This document shows positions 15,430 through 62,048 of a DNA stretch of 64,000 nucleotides, piece by piece. This DNA comes from Candidatus Enterousia sp. (lineage in GTDB: Bacteria > Pseudomonadota > Alphaproteobacteria > Rs-D84). The position numbers were made by a program, and so were the translations under genes. Each line of letters starts with the position of its first letter. Position 1 is the stretch's first letter. Under the pieces are notes generated by a model. It saw nothing but the letters and a program-made list of their open reading frames with translations, was not told the origin of the DNA and made no database searches. The stretch is taken from assembly GCA_045657405.1 (NCBI GenBank), contig JAZOTB010000002.1, positions 32,523-96,522 on the forward strand, read 5' to 3'.

Positions 15430-17670
15430 ATGGCAACTAAATTCAACTTTTTATCAGCATCTGGCAAAGGAAAAGGGTTAAGTATTTTCCGATCCAGCGC
15501 ATACAAAGAACACGAACAAACACCACTAGCGCGTGAATTTTGGTCTATTCGTTGGACTATTTATATTTGGTTAATCGCTGCGCTGATGGTTGCGATGTCT
15601 TTTCCAGTGGAACATATTTGGCGTTACGGGTGGTCACCTGCAACAAAGCAATGGATATCAATATATCTTTATCATGCAATTCATTCTTGTGGCTTATCTG
15701 TTGTCGCAGAAATTCCTTATTGGATTACACGCTGTGTATCACGACCAGATTGGGCATGCATTACACCTTTGTTGCCTATTATTGGATATTATTTTCTGTC
15801 AGATGCAACAATGACAGATGAATTTAATCCGCATTCCAAGGATAAATTTGACGAAAAATCTTCACGCAAGGCAAATGCGGATGACATCAAAAAGATGGGC
15901 GCAGACTATAAAAATAAAGACGGATTATTCAAAGGCTTTATGATGGTGCTTGGACATTTCAAAAACAAACCTTTGAAAATGGATGAAACATTATCTGCAT
16001 TACTGTTGGCACCCGCAGGCACCGGTAAAACACAAGGTGTCGTTATTCCAACAATCTTAGGTTGTGACAATGTTTCTATGATCATCAACGACCCTAAACC
16101 AGAACTAGACAGGGACACATCTGCATATCGTGCAACTGTGGGGCCTGTGTTTATTATGAATTGGGCAGCACGTGACGAACCAGAAAAAGGCATTTATTAC
16201 CCTGCTTGGAACCCATTATCGCCAGAAAATTTGCCAGATAATGCAGAAGAAAAAAGCACTTATATCCAAGTAATAGTTAATTCTATTATTGAAGAAAACG
16301 CCAAAGACCCACACTGGTCAAATACTGCGCGCGCTGCATTAACGGGATTTATAAACTTTATTGTATCCAAAGTTGAACGTGCCAAGGCAAACGACTATTT
16401 CTATCACAGATTAAAAACAGGTACATTTGATTCCCAAGATGCAACTGTATTGATGGATTATTATATGACGATGACATCCGACCCAAATGCATATGCAGCG
16501 ATGTCATTATTGCAACGCGGACAATTAAATATAAATAACTATGTACATGTTGGTACGTGGGGCGGTTTGCCATCAGAATGGCATGGTGGCGAAGCTTCTA
16601 TACCAATGTTCTTGGCATGGTACGTAGAAGGACAAATAAAAGTCGCCAATGAAATAGAAGAACGCAAACGCCAAGGAGATCAAATGGTCATGATGGCCGA
16701 TCCTATGAAGGACTTTTTAACGACTGCAATAAACGAAGCGCGCCTTTATTCTTATGACAATGATGCTATATCTGCTTTGATTAATTTATCTAATACACCA
16801 GACAAAGAACGCGGTTCTGTAATATCAACAATGAACGCAGGGCTGAACATATTCCGTCACCCAGCGGTAAACAAACATACACGACATTCCGATATACACT
16901 TTACAGATGTTCGCGGTATGATTGACCCAACTGACGGAAAAATGAAGCCTATTACTATATATCTATCTATGAACGTTGCAGATGCACCCGCATTTAGCCC
17001 GATTACAAGTATGTTTATTGAATTGCTGTCCAAGTTTTTGATTGCAAACCCACCAGAAAAAATAAACCACGGTCAAAAACTGGGACCTTACCCTGCCCTG
17101 TTCGTATTAGACGAAATGCCAACAATGAATAAACTAGAAGCCATTATCCAAGGGCCTGCGGTCGGACGTGGACAAAAAGTATCATATCTGATTGTCGGTC
17201 AGGACATTAGCCAGATTGCTGAAAAATATGGAGACAAGGCCGCAGATACAATTATTGCAAATACCGCTGCAAAGGTTATCCTTCGCGTAAACGACCCTGC
17301 AACCGCAGAACGATTTACACGAATGATTGGAAAAAAGAAAACCAAGAAAAAAGAAAAAGGCCCAGATGGCAAAGACGTAGAGGTTGAAAAAGAAGAAGAT
17401 TTGTTCAGTCCGATGGACTTAATGACACTACCAAAAGCCAAACAAATTGTGTTGATGCAAGGTTATTACAATCGCCCAATAGAAGCAGATGGCGAATGGC
17501 ATTTTTATCGCAAAAACGCTGTACAAATTGCTTTGAACGACAAAGTAAAAATGGGTCGTGCATCACCAATTCCAGAATATTTAATACCAAAACATCATCG
17601 TGCACTACGATACGAAGGAACACCAAAAGTGTACGACCAAAAAACAAAAAAGATAAAAGAGTTAGCATAA
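15430..17670 (+). CDS. virD4: type IV secretion coupling protein (VirD4/TraG family ATPase)
   Basis: 746 aa. N-terminal TM helices, Walker A LLAPAGTGKTQGVVIPT, Walker B-like ALFVLDEMPTM, Lys/Glu-rich C-terminal segment. The overall TraG/VirD4 layout is present. Confidence 0.8.
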   Translation: MATKFNFLSASGKGKGLSIFRSSAYKEHEQTPLAREFWSIRWTIYIWLIAALMVAMSFPVEHIWRYGWSPATKQWISIYLYHAIHSCGLSVVAEIPYWITRCVSRPDWACITPLLPIIGYYFLSDATMTDEFNPHSKDKFDEKSSRKANADDIKKMGADYKNKDGLFKGFMMVLGHFKNKPLKMDETLSALLLAPAGTGKTQGVVIPTILGCDNVSMIINDPKPELDRDTSAYRATVGPVFIMNWAARDEPEKGIYYPAWNPLSPENLPDNAEEKSTYIQVIVNSIIEENAKDPHWSNTARAALTGFINFIVSKVERAKANDYFYHRLKTGTFDSQDATVLMDYYMTMTSDPNAYAAMSLLQRGQLNINNYVHVGTWGGLPSEWHGGEASIPMFLAWYVEGQIKVANEIEERKRQGDQMVMMADPMKDFLTTAINEARLYSYDNDAISALINLSNTPDKERGSVISTMNAGLNIFRHPAVNKHTRHSDIHFTDVRGMIDPTDGKMKPITIYLSMNVADAPAFSPITSMFIELLSKFLIANPPEKINHGQKLGPYPALFVLDEMPTMNKLEAIIQGPAVGRGQKVSYLIVGQDISQIAEKYGDKAADTIIANTAAKVILRVNDPATAERFTRMIGKKKTKKKEKGPDGKDVEVEKEEDLFSPMDLMTLPKAKQIVLMQGYYNRPIEADGEWHFYRKNAVQIALNDKVKMGRASPIPEYLIPKHHRALRYEGTPKVYDQKTKKIKELA

Positions 17671-34400: not shown

Positions 34401-36395
34401 TTAATCTAATTTATATTCTTCACCGATATTATATTCCGTACCTAATTCAATAATGTTTTTATCGTCACCAGATTGCCCCAGTTCTGATGCGCTGCACATC
34501 ATACCAAACGATTCAACACCTGCGACTGTGCGCTGTGACATTGGCTTTTTCATACCTGGTAATTTTGCCCCAACTGGCGCCAGAACACCACATAAACCAA
34601 CATGTACATTTGGCGCACCACATACAATCTGTACATTTTCACCGGCACCCGTATTTACAGACAGAATATGTAAATCTTCACGTGATGGGTGATTTTTTAC
34701 ATCTACAATTTCTGCAACAATTGGTTTTGGTGTATTATCTGGTTTTTTTACAGTATATTTTTCTGTAATCATCGCAACTGTTTCATCGTCAATACGATTA
34801 AACAAGTTTTCTGGCACAACAAATTCATCACCGTCATTTATACGATGTTCATAAACATTTGGCCACGATAAATCATGTATTGGCTTGAATATGTTTTGCA
34901 TTTTTTCTGCTGCATTTGGAATAACTGGTGCAGATACACGTGCAAACAAATCAATCATCTGCATACATTCATTTAATACAGCACCAGCACCATCCATATC
35001 GCCATTTTTAACCATTGCCCATGGTTCCATTTTGGTCATATATTCATTACCGATTGCATATAATCCACGTAATGCAGCGATTGCATTTCTGAATTCACAC
35101 GCATCCAGCGCAGCAGTCAACGCAGATAGTTTTTCATTTATTTGTGATTCCAACTCTGGATTTTTATCACCCTTGGCAGGAACAATATTACCAAAATTTT
35201 TCTGTGTTAATTTGCAAACACGACTTACAAAATTCCCCAGCATACCGTTCAAATCTTTGTTAACAATATCCGCAAAACGAGATACGGTAAAATCTGTGTC
35301 ATCTGTTTCTGGCGCACTTGCCAACAATGCATAACGCCAACAATCTGCTGGTGCGATTGTAATTGCATCATTCAAGAAAATTCCATTACCTGTTGATTTT
35401 GATACTTTGGCACCTTCAAAATTCAAAAAGTTCATTGCCTTTAACATATCAACTGTTTTCCAGTTATCGTTCATAGCAAGTTCTTGGGATGGAAAGAATA
35501 TAGAATGAAAAGATACATTATCTTTGCCCATAAATTGCGCATAATGAACATCATCACCACCATGCCACCAATCCGCCCAATTTTCATTTGCAGCCTGAGA
35601 TATTGAAACATAACCCCATGGCGCATCAAACCAAACATAAAACACTTTGTTTTCATACCCTGGTTTATTTACAGAAATACCCCATTTCAAATCGCGTGTA
35701 ATTGGGCTGTCACGTAAACCTTCGTCCAACCATTTATTTGCGATTGCCAGTGCTGTTTTTGGCCATCCAATACGTGAATCAATCCATTTGCGCAAGATGT
35801 CTTGCATTGCGCTAGTCTTGAAATACATGTGTTTTGTTTCACGCATTTCAACAGGCGATTCAGGATCAACTGCACTGCGTGGATTAATTAACTGGGCAGG
35901 CTCAAGATTTGCGAAACATTTATCACATTCGTTTCCATATGCATTTTCATAACCGCATTTTGGGCATGTACCAATTACAAATCTGTCTGCCAAGAACTTT
36001 TCTTCTTTGATAGAATAAGGCTGCATAGAAGATTTTTCTTCCAGCATTCCTTGTTCCTGCAAACGCACAAATAATTTTTGAATTAACTTCTCGTGTAATT
36101 TTGTATGTGTACGACCATATAAATCAACAGACAAATTAAAATCTTGAACCGCCTGGACCTGAGGCTTGCGGTACTTTTCCACATATTCTTCAACAGGCAT
36201 ATTTTCTTTGTGCGCGCCAATTTCACTGGCAGTACCATGTTCGTCTGTACCACAAACATACAAAACATCACGACCCATTGCGCGACAAAAACGTGCATAA
36301 ACATCACTTGGTAAATAACAACCAATCAAATGACCAATATGTAGATTATTGTTAACGTATGGTAAAGCAGATGTAATTAAATATTTTTTTGCCAT
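34401..36395 (-). CDS. metG: methionyl-tRNA synthetase with C-terminal tRNA-binding (Trbp111-like) domain
   Basis: ALPYVNNNLHIGH (HIGH); Zn knuckle CPKCGYENAYGNECDKC; KVSKSTGNG (KMSKS); C-terminal ...HPSREDLHILSVNTG...QIVCGAPNV. Confidence 0.95.
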   Translation of the reverse strand: MAKKYLITSALPYVNNNLHIGHLIGCYLPSDVYARFCRAMGRDVLYVCGTDEHGTASEIGAHKENMPVEEYVEKYRKPQVQAVQDFNLSVDLYGRTHTKLHEKLIQKLFVRLQEQGMLEEKSSMQPYSIKEEKFLADRFVIGTCPKCGYENAYGNECDKCFANLEPAQLINPRSAVDPESPVEMRETKHMYFKTSAMQDILRKWIDSRIGWPKTALAIANKWLDEGLRDSPITRDLKWGISVNKPGYENKVFYVWFDAPWGYVSISQAANENWADWWHGGDDVHYAQFMGKDNVSFHSIFFPSQELAMNDNWKTVDMLKAMNFLNFEGAKVSKSTGNGIFLNDAITIAPADCWRYALLASAPETDDTDFTVSRFADIVNKDLNGMLGNFVSRVCKLTQKNFGNIVPAKGDKNPELESQINEKLSALTAALDACEFRNAIAALRGLYAIGNEYMTKMEPWAMVKNGDMDGAGAVLNECMQMIDLFARVSAPVIPNAAEKMQNIFKPIHDLSWPNVYEHRINDGDEFVVPENLFNRIDDETVAMITEKYTVKKPDNTPKPIVAEIVDVKNHPSREDLHILSVNTGAGENVQIVCGAPNVHVGLCGVLAPVGAKLPGMKKPMSQRTVAGVESFGMMCSASELGQSGDDKNIIELGTEYNIGEEYKLD

Positions 36396-36416
36396 TTTAT
36401 TTTTCCCTTTGCCTGT

Positions 36417-36446
36417 ATAAAAAAATAGACGCCAACGGGGCGTCTA
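36417..36446 (-). terminator. intrinsic terminator in the metG 5' leader / after tRNA-Val(GAC)
   Basis: On the - strand: AGACGCC-ccgtt-GGCGTCT followed by aTTTTTTTa, ending about 30 nt before the metG ATG. Confidence 0.7.
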
Positions 36447-36475
36447 AATAAGATTCCCGTTGATTTTTTTCAAAA

Positions 36476-36493
36476 TTAAATTTGCATTCGCAT
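36476..36493 (-). other. mini-ORF MRMQI in the metG leader (possible leader peptide)
   Basis: ATG CGA ATG CAA ATT TAA on the - strand, preceded by AAGGA at 10-nt spacing. It lies 13 nt upstream of CAACGGG (36462..36456), which is complementary to the terminator loop region. Confidence 0.3.
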
Positions 36494-36517
36494 TATTAAT
36501 TCATCCTTCTAAGAACC

Positions 36518-36594
36518 TGGTGGGTGGTATTGGGCTCGAACCAACGACCTTTACGATGTCAACGTAACGCTCTAGCCAACTGAGCTAACCACCC
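36518..36594 (-). tRNA. tRNA-Val (anticodon GAC), CCA encoded
   Basis: The reverse complement folds as a cloverleaf: acceptor GGGTGGT/ACCACCC, anticodon stem TTACG/CGTAA with loop TT-GAC-AT, T-arm GTTGGTTCGAGCCCAAT. Confidence 0.9.
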
Positions 36595-36694
36595 AAAACA
36601 AGACGATTATAACAAAGAAAAACCGAAAAGCAAATATTTATATCAAATATATATGGAAAATAAAAAAAAGATATATTATAGTTCTTCAACAGTT

Positions 36695-36770
36695 GCCGGT
36701 ATAGCTCAGTTGGTAGAGCATCTCATTCGTAATGAGGGGGTCGTAGGTTCAAGTCCTATTACCGGCACCA
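36695..36770 (+). tRNA. tRNA-Thr (anticodon CGU), CCA encoded
   Basis: Acceptor GCCGGTA/TACCGGC, anticodon loop TT-CGT-AA, T-arm GTAGGTTCAAGTCCTAT. Confidence 0.85.
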
Positions 36771-36774
36771 GAAA

Positions 36775-36802
36775 TAAAAATCCCCAAACGGGGATTTTTT
36801 TG
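36775..36802. terminator. bidirectional intrinsic terminator
   Basis: ATCCCC-aaac-GGGGAT with A5 upstream and T7 downstream. Confidence 0.75.
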
Positions 36803-36825
36803 AATATAAATTATGTTTTCAAATA

Positions 36826-37218
36826 TTATTTTATATTGCTTTTGAAACTTTCAACAAAAACAGCCAGTGTTTGTTGTGTTTGTTGTCTGAACATTTCTTT
36901 TTCTTTGTTCACAAATAAATTGTGCATTTTTTTGATGAATTCTACATCTTTAAAAGTTTCTTTTAATACATTATTTTGACTGCCAGATTTAGCTTCAGCA
37001 AATATAACCAAAGCAGTTACTTCTTTGCCATATTCCTTGGTATGGAATACAAAGACATTCTTTTCAAAGCCATTGATTTTCCATTCTTGCTCATCACTAC
37101 CGGCACCCAATGCCCTGACTGTCTTTGATACAGTTTTACCCTTTAAGGCAGTTTTTGTGCAATTGAAAATGTCGTTCTGCATTGCTTTTTTTTCATTTGT
37201 TGTTGAAGCACTTTTCAT
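36826..37218 (-). CDS. hypothetical protein (130 aa)
   Basis: ORF divergent from the ileS leader. No signal peptide and no recognised motif. Confidence 0.45.
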   Translation of the reverse strand: MKSASTTNEKKAMQNDIFNCTKTALKGKTVSKTVRALGAGSDEQEWKINGFEKNVFVFHTKEYGKEVTALVIFAEAKSGSQNNVLKETFKDVEFIKKMHNLFVNKEKEMFRQQTQQTLAVFVESFKSNIK

Positions 37219-37287
37219 ATCATATACCTTTATTCTGCAAATCAGAATAACACAACAATTTTAATTGTCAATTTATTAATACAATGC

Positions 37288-37316
37288 TTGCTTTTTAGTT
37301 TTTTAGCGTGTACAAT
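37288..37316 (+). promoter_or_regulatory. sigma-70-type promoter TTGCTT-17-TACAAT for the ileS leader
   Basis: -35 at 37288..37293, -10 at 37311..37316. The predicted TSS coincides with the leader ATG at 37324. Confidence 0.5.
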
Positions 37317-37323
37317 CCGCCGT

Positions 37324-37356
37324 ATGAAACAAACAACTATAATTATTATTAAATAA
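37324..37356 (+). CDS. putative ileS leader peptide MKQTTIIIIK
   Basis: ATG AAA CAA ACA ACT ATA ATT ATT ATT AAA TAA: four consecutive Ile codons. It lies between the promoter and the terminator, upstream of ileS. Confidence 0.55.
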   Translation: MKQTTIIIIK

Positions 37357-37363
37357 TCGGCAC

Positions 37364-37389
37364 TGCGCTTTGGCGGTGGCTGGGGCGCA
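37364..37389 (+). promoter_or_regulatory. putative antiterminator hairpin of the ileS leader
   Basis: TGCGCTTTGGC (37364..37374) pairs with GCTGGGGCGCA (37379..37389): 11 bp including 4 G-U, with loop GGTG. Its 3' arm contains the terminator 5' arm. Confidence 0.45.
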
Positions 37390-37405
37390 TAGACGCCCCT
37401 TTTTT
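37382..37405 (+). terminator. intrinsic terminator of the ileS leader (attenuator)
   Basis: GGGGCG-cataga-CGCCCC followed by T6. It ends 31 nt before the ileS ATG. Confidence 0.75.
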
Positions 37406-37436
37406 AATGATAAAATGAATACGGAGTATATAAAAT

Positions 37437-40400
37437 ATGACATACCCAAAAACAGACTTGCGCGCGGATTTTCCAACACTAGAACAACAAGTGTTACAAT
37501 ATTGGCGTGAAAACAATACCTTTGATAAAACACTACAAAAAACAAAGCAAGGTCATCCTTTTAATTTCTTTGATGGACCTCCATTTGCAAACGGTATTCC
37601 GCATTGGGGGCATTTGGGTGTAACGGTTGTAAAAGATATGGTGTCGCGCTTTCAAACAATGAACGGTAGATATGTAAACCGTGAACTTGGTTGGGACTGT
37701 CATGGCTTACCCGCAGAAAATTCCGTTGAAAAGAAAGTAGGTAAATCTGCAAAAAACATCGTTGCAGACGATGGCATAGAAGCGTTTTGTAACATGTGCA
37801 AAACAGATGTTATGACATATACAAACGAATGGGATAAATTTATTGAACGTATGGGTCGCTGGGTGAAAATCGGTAACGAATACGGCTATAAAACCATGAA
37901 TAAAAATTATATGGAATCTGTAATGTGGACATTAAAGACATTACATGATAAAGGGCTGTTATACAAAGATTACAGCGTTAATCCATACGATTGGGTCAAT
38001 GGTACTGTTATCTCTAATTCCGAAGCATCCAGTGATTATCGTGAAATAGTTGATGATGCTGTGACTGTTTGGTTTGAATTAGAAAACGGCGACCGTGTTA
38101 TCGCATGGACAACAACACCATGGACATTACCTGCTAACTCTGCTTTGGCAGTGAATCCAAACATGGAATATCTGCGTATGCAAGATATAGATAAAAATGT
38201 TTACGTTGTTGCAAAAAGCAGACTGACTGCATACGAAAAACAATTTGCAAACGCAACAGAAATTGAATGTATCAAGGGTTCGGATTTGGTCGGCAAACAC
38301 TATACACCACTGTTCCCATATTACACAGGACAATCTGATTTATTATTCCAAGTTATACCTGCAGATTATGTATCAGATAGCGATGGTACAGGTATTGTTC
38401 ATATTGCGCCTGCGTACGGTGCCGAAGACTTTTGGGCCGCTAAAAATCTTGATGCAAAATTCCCAGTTTTATTAAATGTTGATGACTATGGAAATTTTGA
38501 TGAAACAGTTGTTGATTTTGCAGGCGAAAACATATTTGTTGCAACACCACGTATTATGGATTGGTTAAAACAAAATGGCAAATTGGTAAAAAAAGAACAA
38601 TATAAACATAGTTATCCTTTTGGTGATCGCAGTAAAGAAAAACTGATTCAGCGCGCAACAGATTCTTGGTATATTGACGTACCAAAAATCAAAGATAAAT
38701 TATTAGCAAATAACGCGACTGTAAATTGGACCAGCGCAGGCGAACGTTTTCGCACATGGATAGAAGGCGCACGCCCTTGGTCAATATCACGCAATCGTTT
38801 CTGGGGTATGCCACTGCCAATTTGGGAAAAAGATGGCGAATTCAAAATATTTGGCTCAATCGCAGAACTGGAAGAATTCTTTGGTGTACCTGTCACAGAT
38901 TTGCATCGCCCAACATTAGATAAATTAACACGTGATGGATGGAAACGTATTCCTGATGTCTTGGACTGTTGGGTAGAAAGCGGTTCTATGCCATGGGCAT
39001 CGTTACATTATCCGTTTGAAAACCAGGATAAGTTTAATACAACTTTCCCTGCGGATTATATTATTGAAGGACAAGACCAAACACGTGGTTGGTTTTATGC
39101 ATTAATGGTACTGGCAACGGCATTGTTTGATAAACCTGCCTTTAAGGCGGTATCTGCAAATGGCATGGTTGTTGATGAAAACAAAAAGAAATATTCTAAA
39201 TCATCAAAGAACTATGTTGACCCAGAACAACAAATTGAACAATATGGCGCAGATGCGGTACGTTTATTCATACTAGGCTCAAACTTTATGAAGGCAGAAC
39301 CTGTATTAATTGATAACGAAGGTAAAGTATTTACAGAAGCGTCAAAAACAATTCAAACACCACTGTGGAATGCGTATCATTTCTTTACACTATATGCAAA
39401 CGCAGGCAATATTGTTGCAAAATATATGACAAATCCAGAAAAACCAATGGATAAATATATATTGGCAGAATTGAATTTGTTAATAGAAAGTGTTACAAAT
39501 TCTTTGTCTGAATATAAACCAGATGCAGCAATCAAAGATATTATCAAATTCTTGGATATATTGAACAACTGGTATATCAGACGTTGTCGTGCACGCATCT
39601 GGAACGAAGAACAAGATGCATTTGATACATTATATACCGTACTGGCTACATTATGTCGTGTATTGTCACCATTCGCACCATTTGTTTCAGAATACATATA
39701 TCGTAATTTAACAAATGAAGAATCTGTTCATTTAACAGATTGGCCAACAGCAGATAAATTTGATAAAAAAATTATTGACGATATGCGTCGCGTACAATCA
39801 ATCGTATCTGTTGGTAATCAACTGCGCGAACAGTATAAATTACGAAATCGTTTGCCATTAAATTCATTAACTATCGCTGGTGTAAACATGCCTGACTATG
39901 CAGATATAATCAAAGACGAACTGAATGTAAAATCAGTTAAATTTGACAACAATATCGCAAGTGTTGCAGATAGTTTTATTTATCTAATTACACCAAAAAT
40001 CGGTGCACGTTTAGGCGGTGCATTAAAGGACATAATTCCATCTGTTAAACGTGGCGAATACAAAATCGTTGGTGATAAATTATTGGCCGCAGGATATGAA
40101 TTAAATGCAGATGAATTTGAAAATCGTTTAACTATCAAAAATGATGTTTCTGGCGCAGCATTACCAGACAACACAGCTGTTGTTGTATTGGATACAGAAT
40201 TAAATGCAGATTTAATTGCAGAAGGCTTAGCAAACGACGCTTTGCGATTTATCCAAAACACACGCAAAACAGCAGGTCTAGATGTTTCTGATCGTATTAT
40301 CCTGACATATAATGCGGATCCTGCAGTCGCAACAGCAATTGAACAATACAAAAAACACATTATGCACGAAGCACTGATTGTTGATATGCAAATCGGTGAT

Positions 40401-40460
40401 GGCGAATATAGCACTGAATTTGAAGGATATAATCTGGCTGTATCTGTCAAAAAAGCATAA
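37437..40460 (+). CDS. ileS: isoleucyl-tRNA synthetase, type 2 (eukaryote-like) form
   Basis: 1007 aa. FNFFDGPPFANGIPHWGHLG (type-2 style HIGH region); KYSKS (KMSKS variant); editing domain; C-terminus lacks the CxxC zinc cluster of type-1 IleRS. GGAG SD at 37423..37426. Confidence 0.95.
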   Translation: MTYPKTDLRADFPTLEQQVLQYWRENNTFDKTLQKTKQGHPFNFFDGPPFANGIPHWGHLGVTVVKDMVSRFQTMNGRYVNRELGWDCHGLPAENSVEKKVGKSAKNIVADDGIEAFCNMCKTDVMTYTNEWDKFIERMGRWVKIGNEYGYKTMNKNYMESVMWTLKTLHDKGLLYKDYSVNPYDWVNGTVISNSEASSDYREIVDDAVTVWFELENGDRVIAWTTTPWTLPANSALAVNPNMEYLRMQDIDKNVYVVAKSRLTAYEKQFANATEIECIKGSDLVGKHYTPLFPYYTGQSDLLFQVIPADYVSDSDGTGIVHIAPAYGAEDFWAAKNLDAKFPVLLNVDDYGNFDETVVDFAGENIFVATPRIMDWLKQNGKLVKKEQYKHSYPFGDRSKEKLIQRATDSWYIDVPKIKDKLLANNATVNWTSAGERFRTWIEGARPWSISRNRFWGMPLPIWEKDGEFKIFGSIAELEEFFGVPVTDLHRPTLDKLTRDGWKRIPDVLDCWVESGSMPWASLHYPFENQDKFNTTFPADYIIEGQDQTRGWFYALMVLATALFDKPAFKAVSANGMVVDENKKKYSKSSKNYVDPEQQIEQYGADAVRLFILGSNFMKAEPVLIDNEGKVFTEASKTIQTPLWNAYHFFTLYANAGNIVAKYMTNPEKPMDKYILAELNLLIESVTNSLSEYKPDAAIKDIIKFLDILNNWYIRRCRARIWNEEQDAFDTLYTVLATLCRVLSPFAPFVSEYIYRNLTNEESVHLTDWPTADKFDKKIIDDMRRVQSIVSVGNQLREQYKLRNRLPLNSLTIAGVNMPDYADIIKDELNVKSVKFDNNIASVADSFIYLITPKIGARLGGALKDIIPSVKRGEYKIVGDKLLAAGYELNADEFENRLTIKNDVSGAALPDNTAVVVLDTELNADLIAEGLANDALRFIQNTRKTAGLDVSDRIILTYNADPAVATAIEQYKKHIMHEALIVDMQIGDGEYSTEFEGYNLAVSVKKA

Positions 40461-50746: not shown

Positions 50747-50822
50747 ATCGTTTGATGCTTGAAATTTCTTTTTATTTTGATACGATAAGGTGCGAATAAT
50801 TTTAGACAAACAGGATAAAAAC

Positions 50823-53225
50823 ATGAATATTGAACTTGGAAAAAACATCAGTCCACGTGAAATTGAAACAAAAATCCAGGAATTCTGGGATAAAAATGAT
50901 TTCTGGGCAAATAATGTAAATTCAGAAAAAACACCTTTTTGTGTTATGATGCCACCACCAAATGTAACTGGCAATTTACATATGGGACATGCGTTGGACA
51001 ATGTTTTAACAGATATCATGTGTCGCTATAAACGTATGGCTGGTTTTGATGTTTTATGGCAACCAGGTACAGACCACGCATCAATCGCAACACAATTGTT
51101 AGTTGAACGTGACTTGTCAAAACGTGGAATAAATCCAAAAGCATTAACTTTGGATGAAAAATTACAGGCTGCATGGGATTGGACCAAGGAATATGGTGGT
51201 CAAATTATATCACAGTTGCACACTTTGGGGGCAACACCTGTATGGAAACGTGAAAGATTTACAATGGATGCAGGTTTGTCACGAAACGTATTAAAACTGT
51301 TTGTAAAAATGTATAACGAAGGTTTGATTTACCGTGATAAACGACTGGTTAACTGGTGTCCAAAACAACAAACATCTGTTTCCGATTTAGAGATTGAAAC
51401 ACGCGAGGAACACGGCAAGTTTTATTATTTCAATTATCAGTTAACTGATGGCGGTGTAATTGAAATCGCAACAACACGTCCTGAAACATTGTTTGGCGAC
51501 CAAGCGATTGCAGTTCATCCTGAAAACGAAAAATTAAAACACTTGATTGGAAAGAAAGCTATTATCCCTTTAACAAATATTGAAATTCCAATTATTGGTG
51601 ACGAACATGCAGACCCAGAAAAAGGTACAGGCGCGGTAAAAATTACACCTGCGCACGACTTTGATGACTACGAAGTTGGTTTACGTCATAATCTGACACC
51701 TGTTTGCATTTTAACACCTGATGCTAAATTAAATGATAATCCTGTTGTACCAGAAAAATATCGTGGTATGGATAGATATGTTGCACGCAAGGCTATTTTA
51801 GAAGACATAGAAGCAGCAGGTTTATTAGTAAAAGTTGAAGACAAAGTTATTCCAACACCATATTCTGAACGTGGCGGTGTTCCTGTTGAACCATACTTAA
51901 CAGACCAATGGTTTGTTGATGCAGAAAAGTTAGCAATACCTGCAATCAAGGCTGTAGAAGACGGTAAAATTAAGTTCTTGCCTGAACATCGTTATAACTT
52001 GTTTATGTCATGGATGAAAAACATTCGTCCTTGGACAATTTCACGCCAATTATGGTGGGGTCATCAAATTCCTGCATGGTATGATGAACAAGGAAATATT
52101 TATGTTGCAGAAAACGAAGAAGATGCAATCAAATTATCTGGCGGTAAAAAACTAAGACAAGAAACAGATACTTTGGACACATGGTTTTCATCTGGATTAT
52201 GGCCATTTTCAACACTGGGCTGGCCAGAAGATACTGCAGAATTAAAGAAATATTTCCCAACAGAATATTTATGTACAGGTTCTGATCTTATATTCTTCTG
52301 GGTTGCACGTATGATAATGATGTCTATTTACGCAACAGGCGAAGTTCCATTCAAGACTGTTTACATGCATGGTATGGTCGTTGACTCTAAAGGCAAAAAA
52401 ATGTCAAAAAGCAAAGGCAACGGAACAGACCCAATGGATGCAGTAAACAAGTTTGGTGTTGATGCTTTACGTTATTGGATTGCAACTGCACCAATTGGAA
52501 CAAATCTGCCATACATAGAAGATGAAGTTAAACGAGGCTCTAAACTGCTGAATAAACTGTGGAACGCATCAAAGTATGTTTTAATGAATTTAACAGACTT
52601 TGAACCAGAAACAGCACAACAAATTCCTGTATCTGAACGCTTTATAGAAGACAGATGGGTATTAAGTGAATTAAACAAAGCAATTTCAGAAACACGCAAG
52701 AATTTGGATAAGTACTATAATTACAACGCACGCAGTGCTATTGATACATTCTTTTGGGATATATTCTGTGACCAATATTTAGAATTTATCAAAGACCGTT
52801 TCTGGGCACCAGAAAAATACACCGCAGAATCAAAACTGTCTGCACAGTGGACATTGTACACAGTATTACGTGCAATAATTGGTTTGTATGCACCGTTTAT
52901 ACCGTTTTTAACCGAAGAACTGTGGCAAAAGATTTACAAATCAACCGAAGGTGGTGAAACATTACACCTGACAGAATATCCAACTGTAAAATCTGAATAT
53001 AACACAGATGTAGAACAGATGAATATCGCTTTGGATTTGTTAAAAAATGTTCGCGGTATGCGTACAGAACGCAAGGTTGGAAATGGCGCAAAACTGGAAA
53101 CGCTAACTATTCCATCTGAAACACCAGATATATTGCATGGGTTAATTAAATCCGCCGCACGTGCAAACGAAATTATATTAGGTGACACATTAGATTTTGT
53201 TGTTCTACAAAACATCCAAGGATAG
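50823..53225 (+). CDS. valS: valyl-tRNA synthetase
   Basis: Start trimmed to MNIELGKNISPREIE (CAGGA SD). PPPNVTGNLHMGH (HIGH); KMSKSKGN (KMSKS); editing domain. Short form without the long coiled-coil tail. Confidence 0.95.
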   Translation: MNIELGKNISPREIETKIQEFWDKNDFWANNVNSEKTPFCVMMPPPNVTGNLHMGHALDNVLTDIMCRYKRMAGFDVLWQPGTDHASIATQLLVERDLSKRGINPKALTLDEKLQAAWDWTKEYGGQIISQLHTLGATPVWKRERFTMDAGLSRNVLKLFVKMYNEGLIYRDKRLVNWCPKQQTSVSDLEIETREEHGKFYYFNYQLTDGGVIEIATTRPETLFGDQAIAVHPENEKLKHLIGKKAIIPLTNIEIPIIGDEHADPEKGTGAVKITPAHDFDDYEVGLRHNLTPVCILTPDAKLNDNPVVPEKYRGMDRYVARKAILEDIEAAGLLVKVEDKVIPTPYSERGGVPVEPYLTDQWFVDAEKLAIPAIKAVEDGKIKFLPEHRYNLFMSWMKNIRPWTISRQLWWGHQIPAWYDEQGNIYVAENEEDAIKLSGGKKLRQETDTLDTWFSSGLWPFSTLGWPEDTAELKKYFPTEYLCTGSDLIFFWVARMIMMSIYATGEVPFKTVYMHGMVVDSKGKKMSKSKGNGTDPMDAVNKFGVDALRYWIATAPIGTNLPYIEDEVKRGSKLLNKLWNASKYVLMNLTDFEPETAQQIPVSERFIEDRWVLSELNKAISETRKNLDKYYNYNARSAIDTFFWDIFCDQYLEFIKDRFWAPEKYTAESKLSAQWTLYTVLRAIIGLYAPFIPFLTEELWQKIYKSTEGGETLHLTEYPTVKSEYNTDVEQMNIALDLLKNVRGMRTERKVGNGAKLETLTIPSETPDILHGLIKSAARANEIILGDTLDFVVLQNIQG

Positions 53226-60635: not shown

Positions 60636-61589
60636 TTAGAATCCAGCCGACTTTAACCAACGAACATCAGAATCCGTAAAAGCACGTATATCAGTTAATC
60701 CATATTTGACCATAACCAAACGTGCCCAACCAAAACCAAATGCAAACCCTTGATATTCATCTGGGTTAACACCACAATTACGCAATACATTTGGATGAAC
60801 CATACCACCACACAACAATTCCATCCATTTGTCGCCAAACTTCATATCAATTTCAATAGATGGTTCTGTGAACGGAAAATAAGATGGACGTATGCGCAAT
60901 TCAACATCATCTTTTTCAAAAAAACGGGATGCAAAAGTTCTCATTGTTGCCAACATATCTGATAAATTTATACCTTTTTCAATTTTATCAACATATAGAC
61001 CTTCTATTTGACCAAACATTGCCGAATGAGTTGCATCTAATTCTTTACGATAACATTGACCAACTGTAAACATTTTAATTGGAACGCCGTTTTTCTCCAT
61101 TGCACGAACCTGAACCGCAGATGTTTGCGTACGCAAAACATTTCCGTTTGGTAAAAAGAAAGTGTCTTGCATATCACGTGCAGGATGATGCATCGGTGTA
61201 TTTAATGCAGTAAAGTTATGCCAATCATCTTCTATTTCTGGGCCAGTCATAAACGTATAACCCAAAGATTCAAAAATATTAACCACTTCTTTGAAACTTT
61301 GTGTCAATGGATGTAATGTACCACGGTTTTCTGGTTCTGGATTTAGCGATACATCCAGTTTCTGTTTTTGCAACCCTGCTATCAAAACTGCGTTTTCTAT
61401 TTCTAATTGACGCGTTTTGAATAATTCACGTAATGTTTGATTTTCCAGATTTAATGCTGCGCGTGCATCATTATCCAGATTTTTCATTTCTTTTAATTTT
61501 GCAGTCATTGTACCATTTTTACCAAATGTATCTGTGTACAAGATTTGCAATTCTTCTAGTGTATTTATATTTTTTATTTTTTCTTGCAT
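60636..61589 (-). CDS. pheS: phenylalanyl-tRNA synthetase alpha subunit
   Basis: Class II motifs: HPLTQ..., FRTQTSAVQVR-type (LRTQTSAVQVR), GQCYRKE, GFAFGFGWARL. Confidence 0.95.
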   Translation of the reverse strand: MQEKIKNINTLEELQILYTDTFGKNGTMTAKLKEMKNLDNDARAALNLENQTLRELFKTRQLEIENAVLIAGLQKQKLDVSLNPEPENRGTLHPLTQSFKEVVNIFESLGYTFMTGPEIEDDWHNFTALNTPMHHPARDMQDTFFLPNGNVLRTQTSAVQVRAMEKNGVPIKMFTVGQCYRKELDATHSAMFGQIEGLYVDKIEKGINLSDMLATMRTFASRFFEKDDVELRIRPSYFPFTEPSIEIDMKFGDKWMELLCGGMVHPNVLRNCGVNPDEYQGFAFGFGWARLVMVKYGLTDIRAFTDSDVRWLKSAGF

Positions 61590-61617
61590 AACTATTACCT
61601 TAAACTAAATCGCTTTC

Positions 61618-61642
61618 AAAACAAAAGCCGTCATCTGACGGC
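61618..61642 (-). terminator. intrinsic terminator between rplT and pheS
   Basis: On the - strand: GCCGTC-agat-GACGGC followed by TTTTGTTTT. Located 29 nt upstream of the pheS ATG. Confidence 0.65.
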
Positions 61643-61679
61643 TTTTATTATTACAAAAGATATACCTGCCGACAAGGTA

Positions 61680-62048
61680 TTATTTAGATTCGGCAGAAAT
61701 AAATCGTTTTGCTGTTTCAACCAATTGGGCAAAGTTTGCATCGCCTGCGTATGCCATTTCGGCCAAAACCTTGCGGTCCAGTGCGACGCCTGCTTTCTTT
61801 AATCCATTCATAAATTGGCTGTATGTCATACCATTTGCACGTACAGCAGCATTAATACGAACAATCCACAAAGAGCGGAATTCGCGTTTTTTAACGCGAC
61901 GATCGCGATAAGCATACTGTCCTGCTTTTTCTGTTTTTTCGCGTGCAGCACGATATGTGGAATGATGACGGCCCAAATAACCCTTGGCGCGCGCCAAAAT
62001 CTTGTTATGTTTTTGTTTTACGGTTGTTCCGCGTTTTACTCTTGCCAT
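61680..62048 (-). CDS. rplT: 50S ribosomal protein L20
   Basis: [24 protein letters not shown]... Confidence 0.95.

Follow-up and report, generated by a model that had tools for sequence, protein, structure and literature searches.

The 64,000-nt stretch of Candidatus Enterousia sp. DNA analysed here (GCA_045657405.1, contig JAZOTB010000002.1, positions 32,523-96,522, forward strand; hereafter the window; G+C content 36%) comes from an uncultured gut alphaproteobacterium of the Candidatus Enterousia group. It carries an ileS gene preceded by a leader of ~80 nt, counted from the AUG of a short upstream open reading frame (uORF) to a U tract. An earlier reading of the bare sequence (the original prediction) had proposed that this leader is a ribosome-mediated attenuator, and upon re-reading the sequence we found every element that it had listed in place. 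To these we add a hairpin, H1, that had been missed.

37288..37293, plus strand: -35 box TTGCTT, followed by a 17-nt spacer
37311..37316, plus strand: -10 box TACAAT, ending 7 nt before the uORF ATG
37324..37356, plus strand: leader uORF MKQTTIIIIK with its stop, 10 sense codons (ATG AAA CAA ACA ACT ATA ATT ATT ATT AAA TAA)
37339..37350, plus strand: putative regulatory Ile codons ATA ATT ATT ATT, with a majority fraction of 0.97 across relatives
37359..37380, plus strand: H1, a putative anti-antiterminator and possible RNA polymerase pause hairpin (37361-66 with 37373-78, plus g37359-c37380)
37364..37389, plus strand: antiterminator AT (37364-74 with 37379-89; 11 bp, 4 of them G.U; loop GGUG)
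37382..37399, plus strand: terminator stem-loop T, GGGGCG-cauaga-CGCCCC, -11.4 kcal/mol
37400..37405, plus strand: T6 tract of the intrinsic terminator, seen in the sequence
37423..37426, plus strand: ileS Shine-Dalgarno GGAG, seen in the sequence, with ACGGAG kept in most relatives
37437..40460, plus strand: ileS, encoding a type-2-like IleRS of 1007 aa (Pfam tRNA-synt_1, Anticodon_1 and DUF5915)

The GC-rich hairpin at 37382-99 with its T6 tract was the sole plus-strand terminator-like site found between 36400 and 38000. Since the upstream neighbour (36826-37218) is encoded on the minus strand, this hairpin is not the end of an upstream plus-strand gene, and the tRNA-Thr gene that lies beyond the neighbour has a terminator-like hairpin of its own (36776-99); we therefore rejected that explanation of the terminator. 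The leader terminator sits in a divergent promoter region, the minus-strand open reading frame (ORF) having its own promoter-like site (TTGACA-16-TATTCT, 37271-37244). The earlier claim that ileS has no promoter past the terminator was also borne out. The gap between the two is 31 nt, its lone promoter-like match (ATGATA-18-TAAAAT, 37407-36) runs up to the ATG itself, and the region is not conserved, so that this match was discarded as a candidate promoter.

When 37324-37410 was folded, the two alternative structures that had been predicted both proved real, with the pairing of 37364-74 to 37379-89 reaching about -16 to -16.7 kcal/mol. The minimum-free-energy (MFE) fold of this segment (z = -2.97 versus shuffles) additionally contained H1, which the original prediction did not mention. 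H1 is compatible with T and incompatible with AT, and AT shares 37382-87 with T, hence AT and T are mutually exclusive helices. The MFE fold also paired the Ile run over a long range with the A/U-rich tail past the U tract, which we judged to be trivial A/U complementarity and set aside.

The four-codon Ile run had been called unlikely by chance. On the window alone the case for this is no more than moderate: counting both strands, there are 14 occurrences of ATHATHATHATH versus 5.2 expected, and 7 of the 51 window genes have a short upstream ORF with a run of at least three identical residues. An ATG-started run of four identical residues was found solely at ileS among these 51 genes. One apparent further case, an MNRNATTTVK uORF upstream of 19625, was dropped because it is merely the C-terminal end of an OmpA-family gene. 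Nor is ATA, the first codon of the run, of a rare type, as had been supposed, as it makes up 30% of the Ile codons in the window's long ORFs. What proved decisive for the Ile run was its conservation upstream of ileS.

To compare relatives, GTDB species genomes were scanned, yielding 80 loci whose IleRS is 72-93% identical to that of the window; many of these genomes are titled Candidatus Enterousia, and their sources are the guts of humans, ruminants and birds. We could place the ileS N-terminus in all but one of these loci and compared the resulting 79, so that counts out of 80 below refer to the 79 loci plus the window (77 distinct leader sequences). As the original prediction had anticipated for an alignment of related upstream regions, uORF, structure and terminator were present in all 79 loci, on a common plan consisting of a uORF of the form M-x4-I(3-5)-x-stop, the core GCGCUUUGGCGGUGGCUGGGGCGC and a terminator. 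The uORF has 10 sense codons in 76/80 sequences and 9 in the other four, starts with ATG (GTG in 2 sequences) and stops with TAA in 78/80. Four variable residues precede the Ile run, which is mostly IIII, with III in one sequence, IIIII in one and VIII in two, such that 3-5 consecutive Ile codons, or V-I-I-I, occur in 80/80. Between run and stop, every sequence has just one codon (AAA in 67, AGA in 9, others in 4), and a spacer of 8-10 nt of variable sequence separates the stop from the AT core. The T run measures 5-8 nt in 79/80 sequences, and ileS begins ~30 nt past it in the relatives, which leaves no room for a promoter. In one relative (L026:3893-3990), ~90 nt containing repeats of the motif CAAAGTTCA are inserted past the U tract, ahead of the ileS Shine-Dalgarno.

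The kind of variation differed between parts of the leader. The majority fraction was 0.97 for the Ile run, 0.99 for the stop, 0.91 for the core, 0.79 for codons 2-5 and 0.64 for the spacer. Across the 77 distinct sequences, non-majority cells of the Ile run fell on codon positions 1/2/3 in the proportion 2/1/24, and the third-position changes were T to C or T to A and never to G, so the codons still specify Ile. Codons 2-5 had 65/51/79 non-majority cells at the same positions; since these changes show no positional bias, the peptide encoded there is unconstrained. Length differences between the ATG and the Ile run were multiples of 3 nt. Judging from this pattern, the Ile run is decoded as codons, which fits selection on decoding and is unlike what a site bound by RNA or protein would show. 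The run opens with ATA in 77/80 sequences, and in one divergent subgroup the last codon is ATA as well. ATA is read by a separate, lysidine-modified tRNA-Ile. The AUA-first arrangement suggests that the leader may monitor both tRNA-Ile isoacceptors, the lysidine-modified one for AUA and the major one for AUU/AUC.

A covariance model built from the leader alignment gave one match per ileS locus in 875 kb of sequence (the window plus the loci), and it revealed no further copies of the element upstream of other genes in these 875 kb. The original prediction had also stated that T-box features are absent, and scanning with Rfam agreed: no T-box was found in 36000-38500 at E up to 10, and at gathering scores the whole window yielded only tRNAs and no T-box. 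None of the Rfam amino-acid leader families (His, Leu, Thr, Trp and others) matched the ileS leader. The sole Rfam match near the element was to caiA RNA (19.9 bits, E = 4.1), far below that family's gathering score of 55.5. With no accepted match except tRNAs in these scans, we rejected a T-box or another described RNA family as the identity of the ileS leader.

We next considered where transcription of the leader starts. Fifty-seven loci have a leader promoter of their own, and in 48 of these 57 it takes the form TTGnnn, exactly 17 nt, TAnnnT, with the -10 box ending 7-10 nt before the start codon in each of the 48 loci that could be scored. Given such a short distance, the leader mRNA would be leaderless or have a 5' untranslated region (UTR) of 1-2 nt, and the spacing thus points to an effectively leaderless uORF mRNA. 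The other arrangement, seen in 22/80 loci that lack a promoter of their own, has the uORF beginning 9-20 nt past the CCA end of a tRNA-Thr(CGU) gene, with a linker that is A-rich and without a Shine-Dalgarno. In the window, the tRNA-Thr gene is set apart from the leader:

36695..36770, plus strand: tRNA-Thr(CGU) gene, found by ARAGORN and Rfam

Between it and the leader lies the minus-strand ORF at 36826-37218, which encodes 130 aa and had no match in a Pfam search. Since most related loci have tRNA-Thr ahead of the leader, on its strand, we suggest that the ancestral order was tRNA-Thr, leader, ileS, and that the window's version was separated by insertion of this ORF. In the 22 joined loci, tRNA, leader and ileS would form one transcription unit, in which the attenuator terminator would also end the tRNA transcripts.

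The pairings themselves were then examined across the alignment. For AT, 92.9% of alignment cells were paired, versus 32-57% when the 3' partners were slid by 1-3 columns, and for T the corresponding values were 91.1% and 50-74%. RNAalifold applied to the full alignment returned the foot of AT as consensus. One AT pair shows a GC to AU compensatory change in three sequences, the apical AT pairs vary compatibly (GGC...GCU to GGCA...UGCC or GCC...GGC), and T has the compensatory variants GGGGUGC/GCACCC and GGGCGU/ACGCCC. In the clade formed by L019, L031 and L049, three substitutions coincide, and together they keep both AT and T paired: GCGC in the AT 5' arm has become GCAC (G to A), GGGGCGC in the shared arm has become GGGGUGC (C to U), and GCGCC in the T 3' arm has become GCACC (G to A). 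In the L003 group, a C to U in the shared arm gives a G.U pair in AT and, with a matching G to A, a U-A pair in T. Alignment covariation statistics were weak for both T and AT, since in the GCACCC variants the 3' arm of T is misplaced by MAFFT and the core is nearly invariant, as expected because each of its bases serves two pairings. An H1-type hairpin was predicted in every relative (mean about -11 kcal/mol), and H1 was more stable than dinucleotide shuffles in 75% of sequences. Before the T 3' arm is made, AT is the MFE structure in 82% of sequences, by a median of 3.8 kcal/mol over H1; once T can form, H1 plus T beats AT by a median of 6.3 kcal/mol.

The effect of a translating ribosome was modelled by masking the RNA up to the ribosome's leading edge and recomputing the folds, using Findpath barriers in place of a kinetic co-transcriptional folding simulation. 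The position of the edge is counted from the first nucleotide of the stop, the footprint was assumed to place the edge at A-site nt 1 + 12 (to +14), and the values are medians over the 77 sequences in kcal/mol.

No contact, or edge at +3 or less (A site on Ile codons 1-3): H1 -11.4 (-11.0 at +3), AT -15.8; barrier H1 to AT 14.0 (13.4 at +3), barrier AT to T 10.6; (H1+T) minus AT -5.9 (-5.1 at +3); termination predicted
Edge at +6, +8 and +10 (Ile codon 4 or codon 10 in the A site): H1 -7.5, -6.2 and -3.5, AT -15.8, -15.8 and -15.3; barrier H1 to AT 10.0, 8.4 and 6.1, barrier AT to T 10.6, 10.5 and 10.3; (H1+T) minus AT -1.7, +0.2 and +1.5; readthrough predicted
Edge at +12 and +14 (stop codon in the A site): H1 -3.4 and -2.6, AT -10.2 and -5.3; barrier H1 to AT 5.8 and 3.5, barrier AT to T 5.1 and 3.8; (H1+T) minus AT -2.9 and -7.0; termination predicted

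Correspondingly, the equilibrium terminator probability was 0.76 at first, fell to 0.42 at +9 to +10 and rose to 0.82-0.95 thereafter, and the window sequence modelled alone gave the same three-state profile. As modelled, the logic of superattenuation, relief and termination is the classical one, and it would account for the spacer of 8-10 nt as well as for the single codon that invariably lies between Ile run and stop. The original prediction had held that a ribosome reaching the UAA covers the 5' arm of AT so that the terminator forms, and the model concurs, with edges of +12 to +14 terminating. Its further claim, that stalling on the Ile codons gives readthrough, fits the model for the last Ile codon and perhaps the last two; stalls on Ile codons 1-3 are predicted to terminate.

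Taken together, these observations make it very likely that the element is an Ile-tRNA-sensing, ribosome-mediated (leader-peptide) transcription attenuator on ileS. This reading is supported because the uORF is conserved, its variation is of codon type, its spacing is fixed, AT and T are exclusive, there is no room for a promoter past T, and no Rfam family describes the leader. The Ile-rich uORFs ahead of ileS in deeply diverged lineages and the Met-codon uORF with a terminator ahead of metG in the window, both described below, speak for it too, as do the attenuators known or predicted on other synthetase genes. The parts, their conservation, the codon-type constraint, the exclusivity of the helices and their relative energies were established in silico; that the uORF is translated, that T terminates and that the response runs in the direction given below is what we infer from them.

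According to the mechanism that we propose, transcription would start at the uORF AUG or 1-2 nt before it, or, in many relatives, would read in from the upstream tRNA-Thr gene. H1 would fold first as RNA polymerase proceeds and, by analogy with the trp paradigm, may serve as a pause site by which polymerase and ribosome are kept in step. If H1 were left undisturbed, T would form and transcription would stop at the U tract, ~31 nt before ileS. A ribosome on the 10-codon uORF would decide the outcome by the position of its leading edge while the terminator region is being made. With Ile-tRNA scarce, the ribosome would be held on the last Ile codon, where it would melt the base of H1 and leave the GCGC foot of AT free, so that AT (37364-74 with 37379-89) could form and sequester the 5' arm of T, and polymerase would read into ileS. 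With Ile-tRNA plentiful, the ribosome would stand two codons further on, at the UAA, and cover the 5' foot of AT; the weakened AT would then be displaced by the 3' arm of the terminator, resulting in termination.

Several points weigh against this interpretation. The Ile codons lie upstream of H1 and not inside it, and with the usual footprint only a stall on the fourth of them touches H1, and then just its base, while stalls on the first three are, as noted, predicted to terminate. A shift of the edge by ~4-6 nt is enough to reverse the predicted outcome, which makes the model sensitive to the footprint assumed, and if the ribosome unwinds RNA only to about A-site +8, the helices would hardly be influenced. 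The barrier estimates ignore pseudoknotted intermediates as well as transcription and polymerase kinetics. The uORF lacks a Shine-Dalgarno, such that its presumed translation rests on leaderless or A-rich-leader initiation. Covariation is sparse, the core being nearly invariant, and the triple substitution described above represents a single evolutionary event, since L019, L031 and L049 are one clade of nearest neighbours. For H1, alignment covariation was not above controls, and its 5' arm aligns poorly.

The sensitivity to footprint gives some room to an opposite, pyrBI-like logic, in which the leader is a translation-coupled antiterminator: a ribosome at codon 10 or the stop would cause readthrough, and an Ile stall or the lack of a ribosome would cause termination. 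Were the edge to reach only A-site +9/+10, a ribosome at the stop codon would free 37364-65 onward, where AT dominates (P(terminator) 0.10), and both the maximum of AT at edge +9 to +11 in the profile and the predicted termination upon stalls at Ile codons 1-3 would suit this logic. The edge of the footprint in bacterial ribosome profiling and toeprinting, however, lies at A-site nt 1 plus 12, with which the stop-codon state terminates in most sequences (P 0.82-0.95). Such a switch would also lower IleRS when Ile-tRNA is scarce, a destabilising positive feedback that is physiologically implausible and, to our knowledge, opposite to every characterised aminoacyl-tRNA synthetase control that senses the cognate tRNA (T-box, pheST), and sensing translation in general needs no conserved run of cognate codons. 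We thus regard it as very unlikely. Slightly less credence still is due to the idea that T is a plain leaky, unregulated terminator, either that of tRNA-Thr or an insulator that keeps ileS expression low and constitutive, with the uORF being no sensor at all. It is true that in 22/80 loci the element directly follows tRNA-Thr without another terminator, so T must end the tRNA-Thr transcripts there, and that in this AT-rich genome it is not unusual for a gene to be preceded by a short ORF with a residue run. Yet the element is kept in the 57 loci with a separate promoter, where tRNA-Thr has its own terminator (as in the window), and a leaky terminator leaves unexplained the invariant Ile run with its synonymous-only variation, the one-codon distance to the stop, the 8-10 nt spacer and the conserved AT that overlaps T with coordinated substitutions.

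The leader could alternatively be read by a factor acting in trans, whether uncharged tRNA-Ile as in a T-box, IleRS itself by autoregulation as in the case of E. coli thrS, or an attenuation protein that binds the AUU repeat. TRAP-like proteins have triplet-repeat sites, to which AUA AUU AUU AUU is superficially similar. In Firmicutes and Actinobacteria, ileS is T-box-controlled (PMC1262725). The leader nevertheless has no T-box match at E up to 10 and, at ~80 nt, is too short to accommodate Stem I, a specifier loop and a T-box antiterminator, and a GAU resembling the Ile anticodon is absent from the loops of both H1 (GCUUUG) and AT (GGUG). A binding site would, moreover, not need the codon-like variation that preserves frame, start and stop. 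Of the three alternatives, we consider this one the most improbable, and the Ile-tRNA-sensing attenuator remains the reading that we adopt.

Since metG of the same window also has a leader, we describe its parts here.

34401-36395, minus strand: metG (Pfam tRNA-synt_1g, E = 1.7e-135), with its ATG at 36395
36396-36517, minus strand: metG leader, in the order tRNA-Val(GAC), uORF, possible antiterminator, terminator, metG
36493-36476, minus strand: metG uORF ATG CGA ATG CAA ATT TAA (MRMQI*), 5 codons, with a conserved ATGCGAATG
36462-56 with 36439-33, minus strand: possible metG antiterminator, CAACGGG with CCCGTTG, overlapping the terminator
36446-36426, minus strand: metG terminator, followed by T7 at 36425-19, with the metG ATG ~25 nt further on

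An M(K)RM uORF with the same helices was found in 32 of 63 metagenome metG upstream regions, at MetRS identities down to ~52%. The spacer from uORF stop to antiterminator is 13-17 nt, 6 of 7 terminator pairs show compensatory changes, and the antiterminator is paired in 88% of cells versus 29-66% in slid controls. The metG leader had no match in Rfam.

The nearest relatives of the window IleRS are proteins from metagenome-assembled genomes labelled Alphaproteobacteria bacterium, the nearest 50%-identity cluster representative is 50% identical to it, and the next ones are ~42% identical. We surveyed nine distinct type-2 ileS loci at 44-48% identity to the window IleRS. Four of these (L157, L159, L160 and L163) have a plain promoter, a short UTR and no leader, while in four of the nine the uORF ends in IIIP-stop or IIP-stop (MKRFFRPYIPFIIIP, MCSFIQNINIIIIP, MCSFNIHIISIIIP and MKLNFQISNIFNIIP); the L165 uORF, MCNFIQNINIIIIP, is a close variant of MCSFIQNINIIIIP, and locus L167 has the uORF MKKFTNNFAHQPINSNIISAII. 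The Ile-rich uORFs of this survey lie as follows, upstream of an ileS that begins at 1201 of each locus sequence.

L158, 1050-1200: Ile-rich uORF
L161, 1050-1140: Ile-rich uORF
L162, 1035-1130: Ile-rich uORF
L164, 1050-1140: Ile-rich uORF
L165: Ile-rich uORF
L167: uORF MKKFTNNFAHQPINSNIISAII

In the IIIP and IIP leaders, the last Ile codon, the Pro codon and the stop form a hairpin, AUCCCC-UAG-GGGGAU, which has the stop in its loop and is followed by a U-rich tract. Of the distant Ile-rich leader loci searched against Rfam, none had a match. The sequences suggest that Ile-rich leaders on ileS recur with different RNA architectures.

Given these elements, we raise, tentatively and as a possibility about which we are more doubtful than confident, that the ileS leader is one of an undescribed set of attenuators that host-associated Alphaproteobacteria have on class I synthetase genes, each built around a tiny uORF with cognate codons; the leaders would typically be leaderless or fused 3' of a non-cognate tRNA gene. 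The members of such a set would be ileS with IIII, metG with M(K)RM, and the IIIP-stop leaders of the distant lineage. If this is true, the site at which ribosomes enter would arise through tRNA processing or through the start of transcription, and the tRNA gene and the switch would have a single terminator in common. Rfam has no family for the candidate sister elements of metG and of the distant-lineage ileS.

Not all synthetase genes of the window have leaders. valS (50823-53225) has only a TTGAAA-17-TACGAT promoter and a ~30-nt 5' UTR (50760-50825). The rplT-pheS interval (61589-61680, minus strand) contains a terminator-like hairpin, GCCGTC-agat-GACGGC, followed by TTTTGTTTT (61642-61618), and, unlike at E. 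coli pheM, no Phe-rich uORF was found between rplT and pheS in the window. Elsewhere in the window, a gene for a VirD4/TraG-family type IV secretion coupling protein (15430-17670, plus strand; T4SS-DNA_transf, TraG-D_C and TrwB) may be the sign of a conjugative or type IV secretion region.

The control of synthetase genes in well-studied bacteria involves T-boxes in Gram-positives, a leader peptide in the case of pheST and autoregulation in the case of thrS. Among synthetase operons, E. coli pheST is an established case of leader-peptide attenuation. Like pheST with its pheM leader peptide, the ileS leader has a short cognate-codon uORF and helices that are alternatives to each other, with a Rho-independent terminator shortly before the synthetase gene. 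It differs in concerning Ile rather than Phe and an enzyme of a different class, in having no sequence relationship to pheST, and in its shorter uORF (10 codons versus 14 in pheM), which is leaderless or tRNA-fed whereas pheM has a Shine-Dalgarno; its regulatory codons, moreover, lie upstream of helix 1 and not inside it. The enterobacterial ilv and thr leaders contain Ile codons. The enterobacterial ilvL, ivbL and thrL and the predicted attenuators of the synthetase genes leuS and trpS of Streptomyces are built, like the ileS leader, from a leader peptide containing runs of cognate codons together with an antiterminator and a terminator; their genes and phyla are different, however, their leader peptides are longer, and their sequences are not similar to it. 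pheST has been cited as an attenuator precedent in the work that predicted classical attenuators for Streptomyces trpS and leuS (PMC1262725).

With the ileS T-boxes of Firmicutes and Actinobacteria, many of which act via a choice between antiterminator and terminator (PMC1262725), the present leader shares the gene and the signal, tRNA-Ile charging. The T-box sensor, however, is uncharged tRNA bound on a leader RNA of ~200 nt or longer, whereas the sensor proposed here is the translating ribosome. Closer in lineage is the S. meliloti trpL attenuator RNA, which begins with the AUG of the leader ORF and is thus leaderless (PMC10117765). Both systems are alphaproteobacterial, ribosome-dependent (by prediction, for ileS) and leaderless, and have a cognate-codon run a few codons before the stop; trpL, unlike the ileS leader, regulates biosynthetic trpE(G) and uses Trp codons, and its released RNA (rnTrpL) and peptide act in trans, which those of the ileS leader are not known to do.

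The original prediction knew of no Ile-leader attenuator described for ileS. Full-text literature searches for an Ile-codon attenuator on ileS found none described, but they did turn up the mention of a Caulobacter leader CDS, on account of which that statement has to be toned down. Ribosome profiling of Caulobacter names an "ileS leader CDS (CCNA_03934)" and a trpS leader CDS and suggests a regulatory role for them (PMC4117421). The ileS leader CDS serves there as a control only, and is given without sequence, Ile content, structure or mechanism (PMC4117421). By description, the Caulobacter crescentus leader is, like the present one, a small ORF upstream of ileS in an alphaproteobacterium, and ribosome profiling found it to be translated. 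Caulobacter ileS has 969 codons by its coordinates, versus the 1007-aa, DUF5915-bearing enzyme here, and its IleRS may be of a different type from the window's.

Set beside these systems, the proposed mechanism is a textbook one; the novelty lies in the gene under control and the lineage, in a minimal design that is leaderless or fused to a tRNA, and in the putative sister elements on metG and distant ileS. The leader would provide a concrete switch for ileS in widespread uncultured gut Alphaproteobacteria, as well as a marker for a small ORF that annotation pipelines currently miss, and its linkage to tRNA-Thr suggests that a tRNA gene and a synthetase gene can lie in a single transcription unit with a common terminator. 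Since a ribosome shift of two codons is predicted to flip the outcome within a compact ~80-nt design, it would also lend itself well, as a minimal model, to studying how the position of a ribosome becomes an RNA-folding decision.

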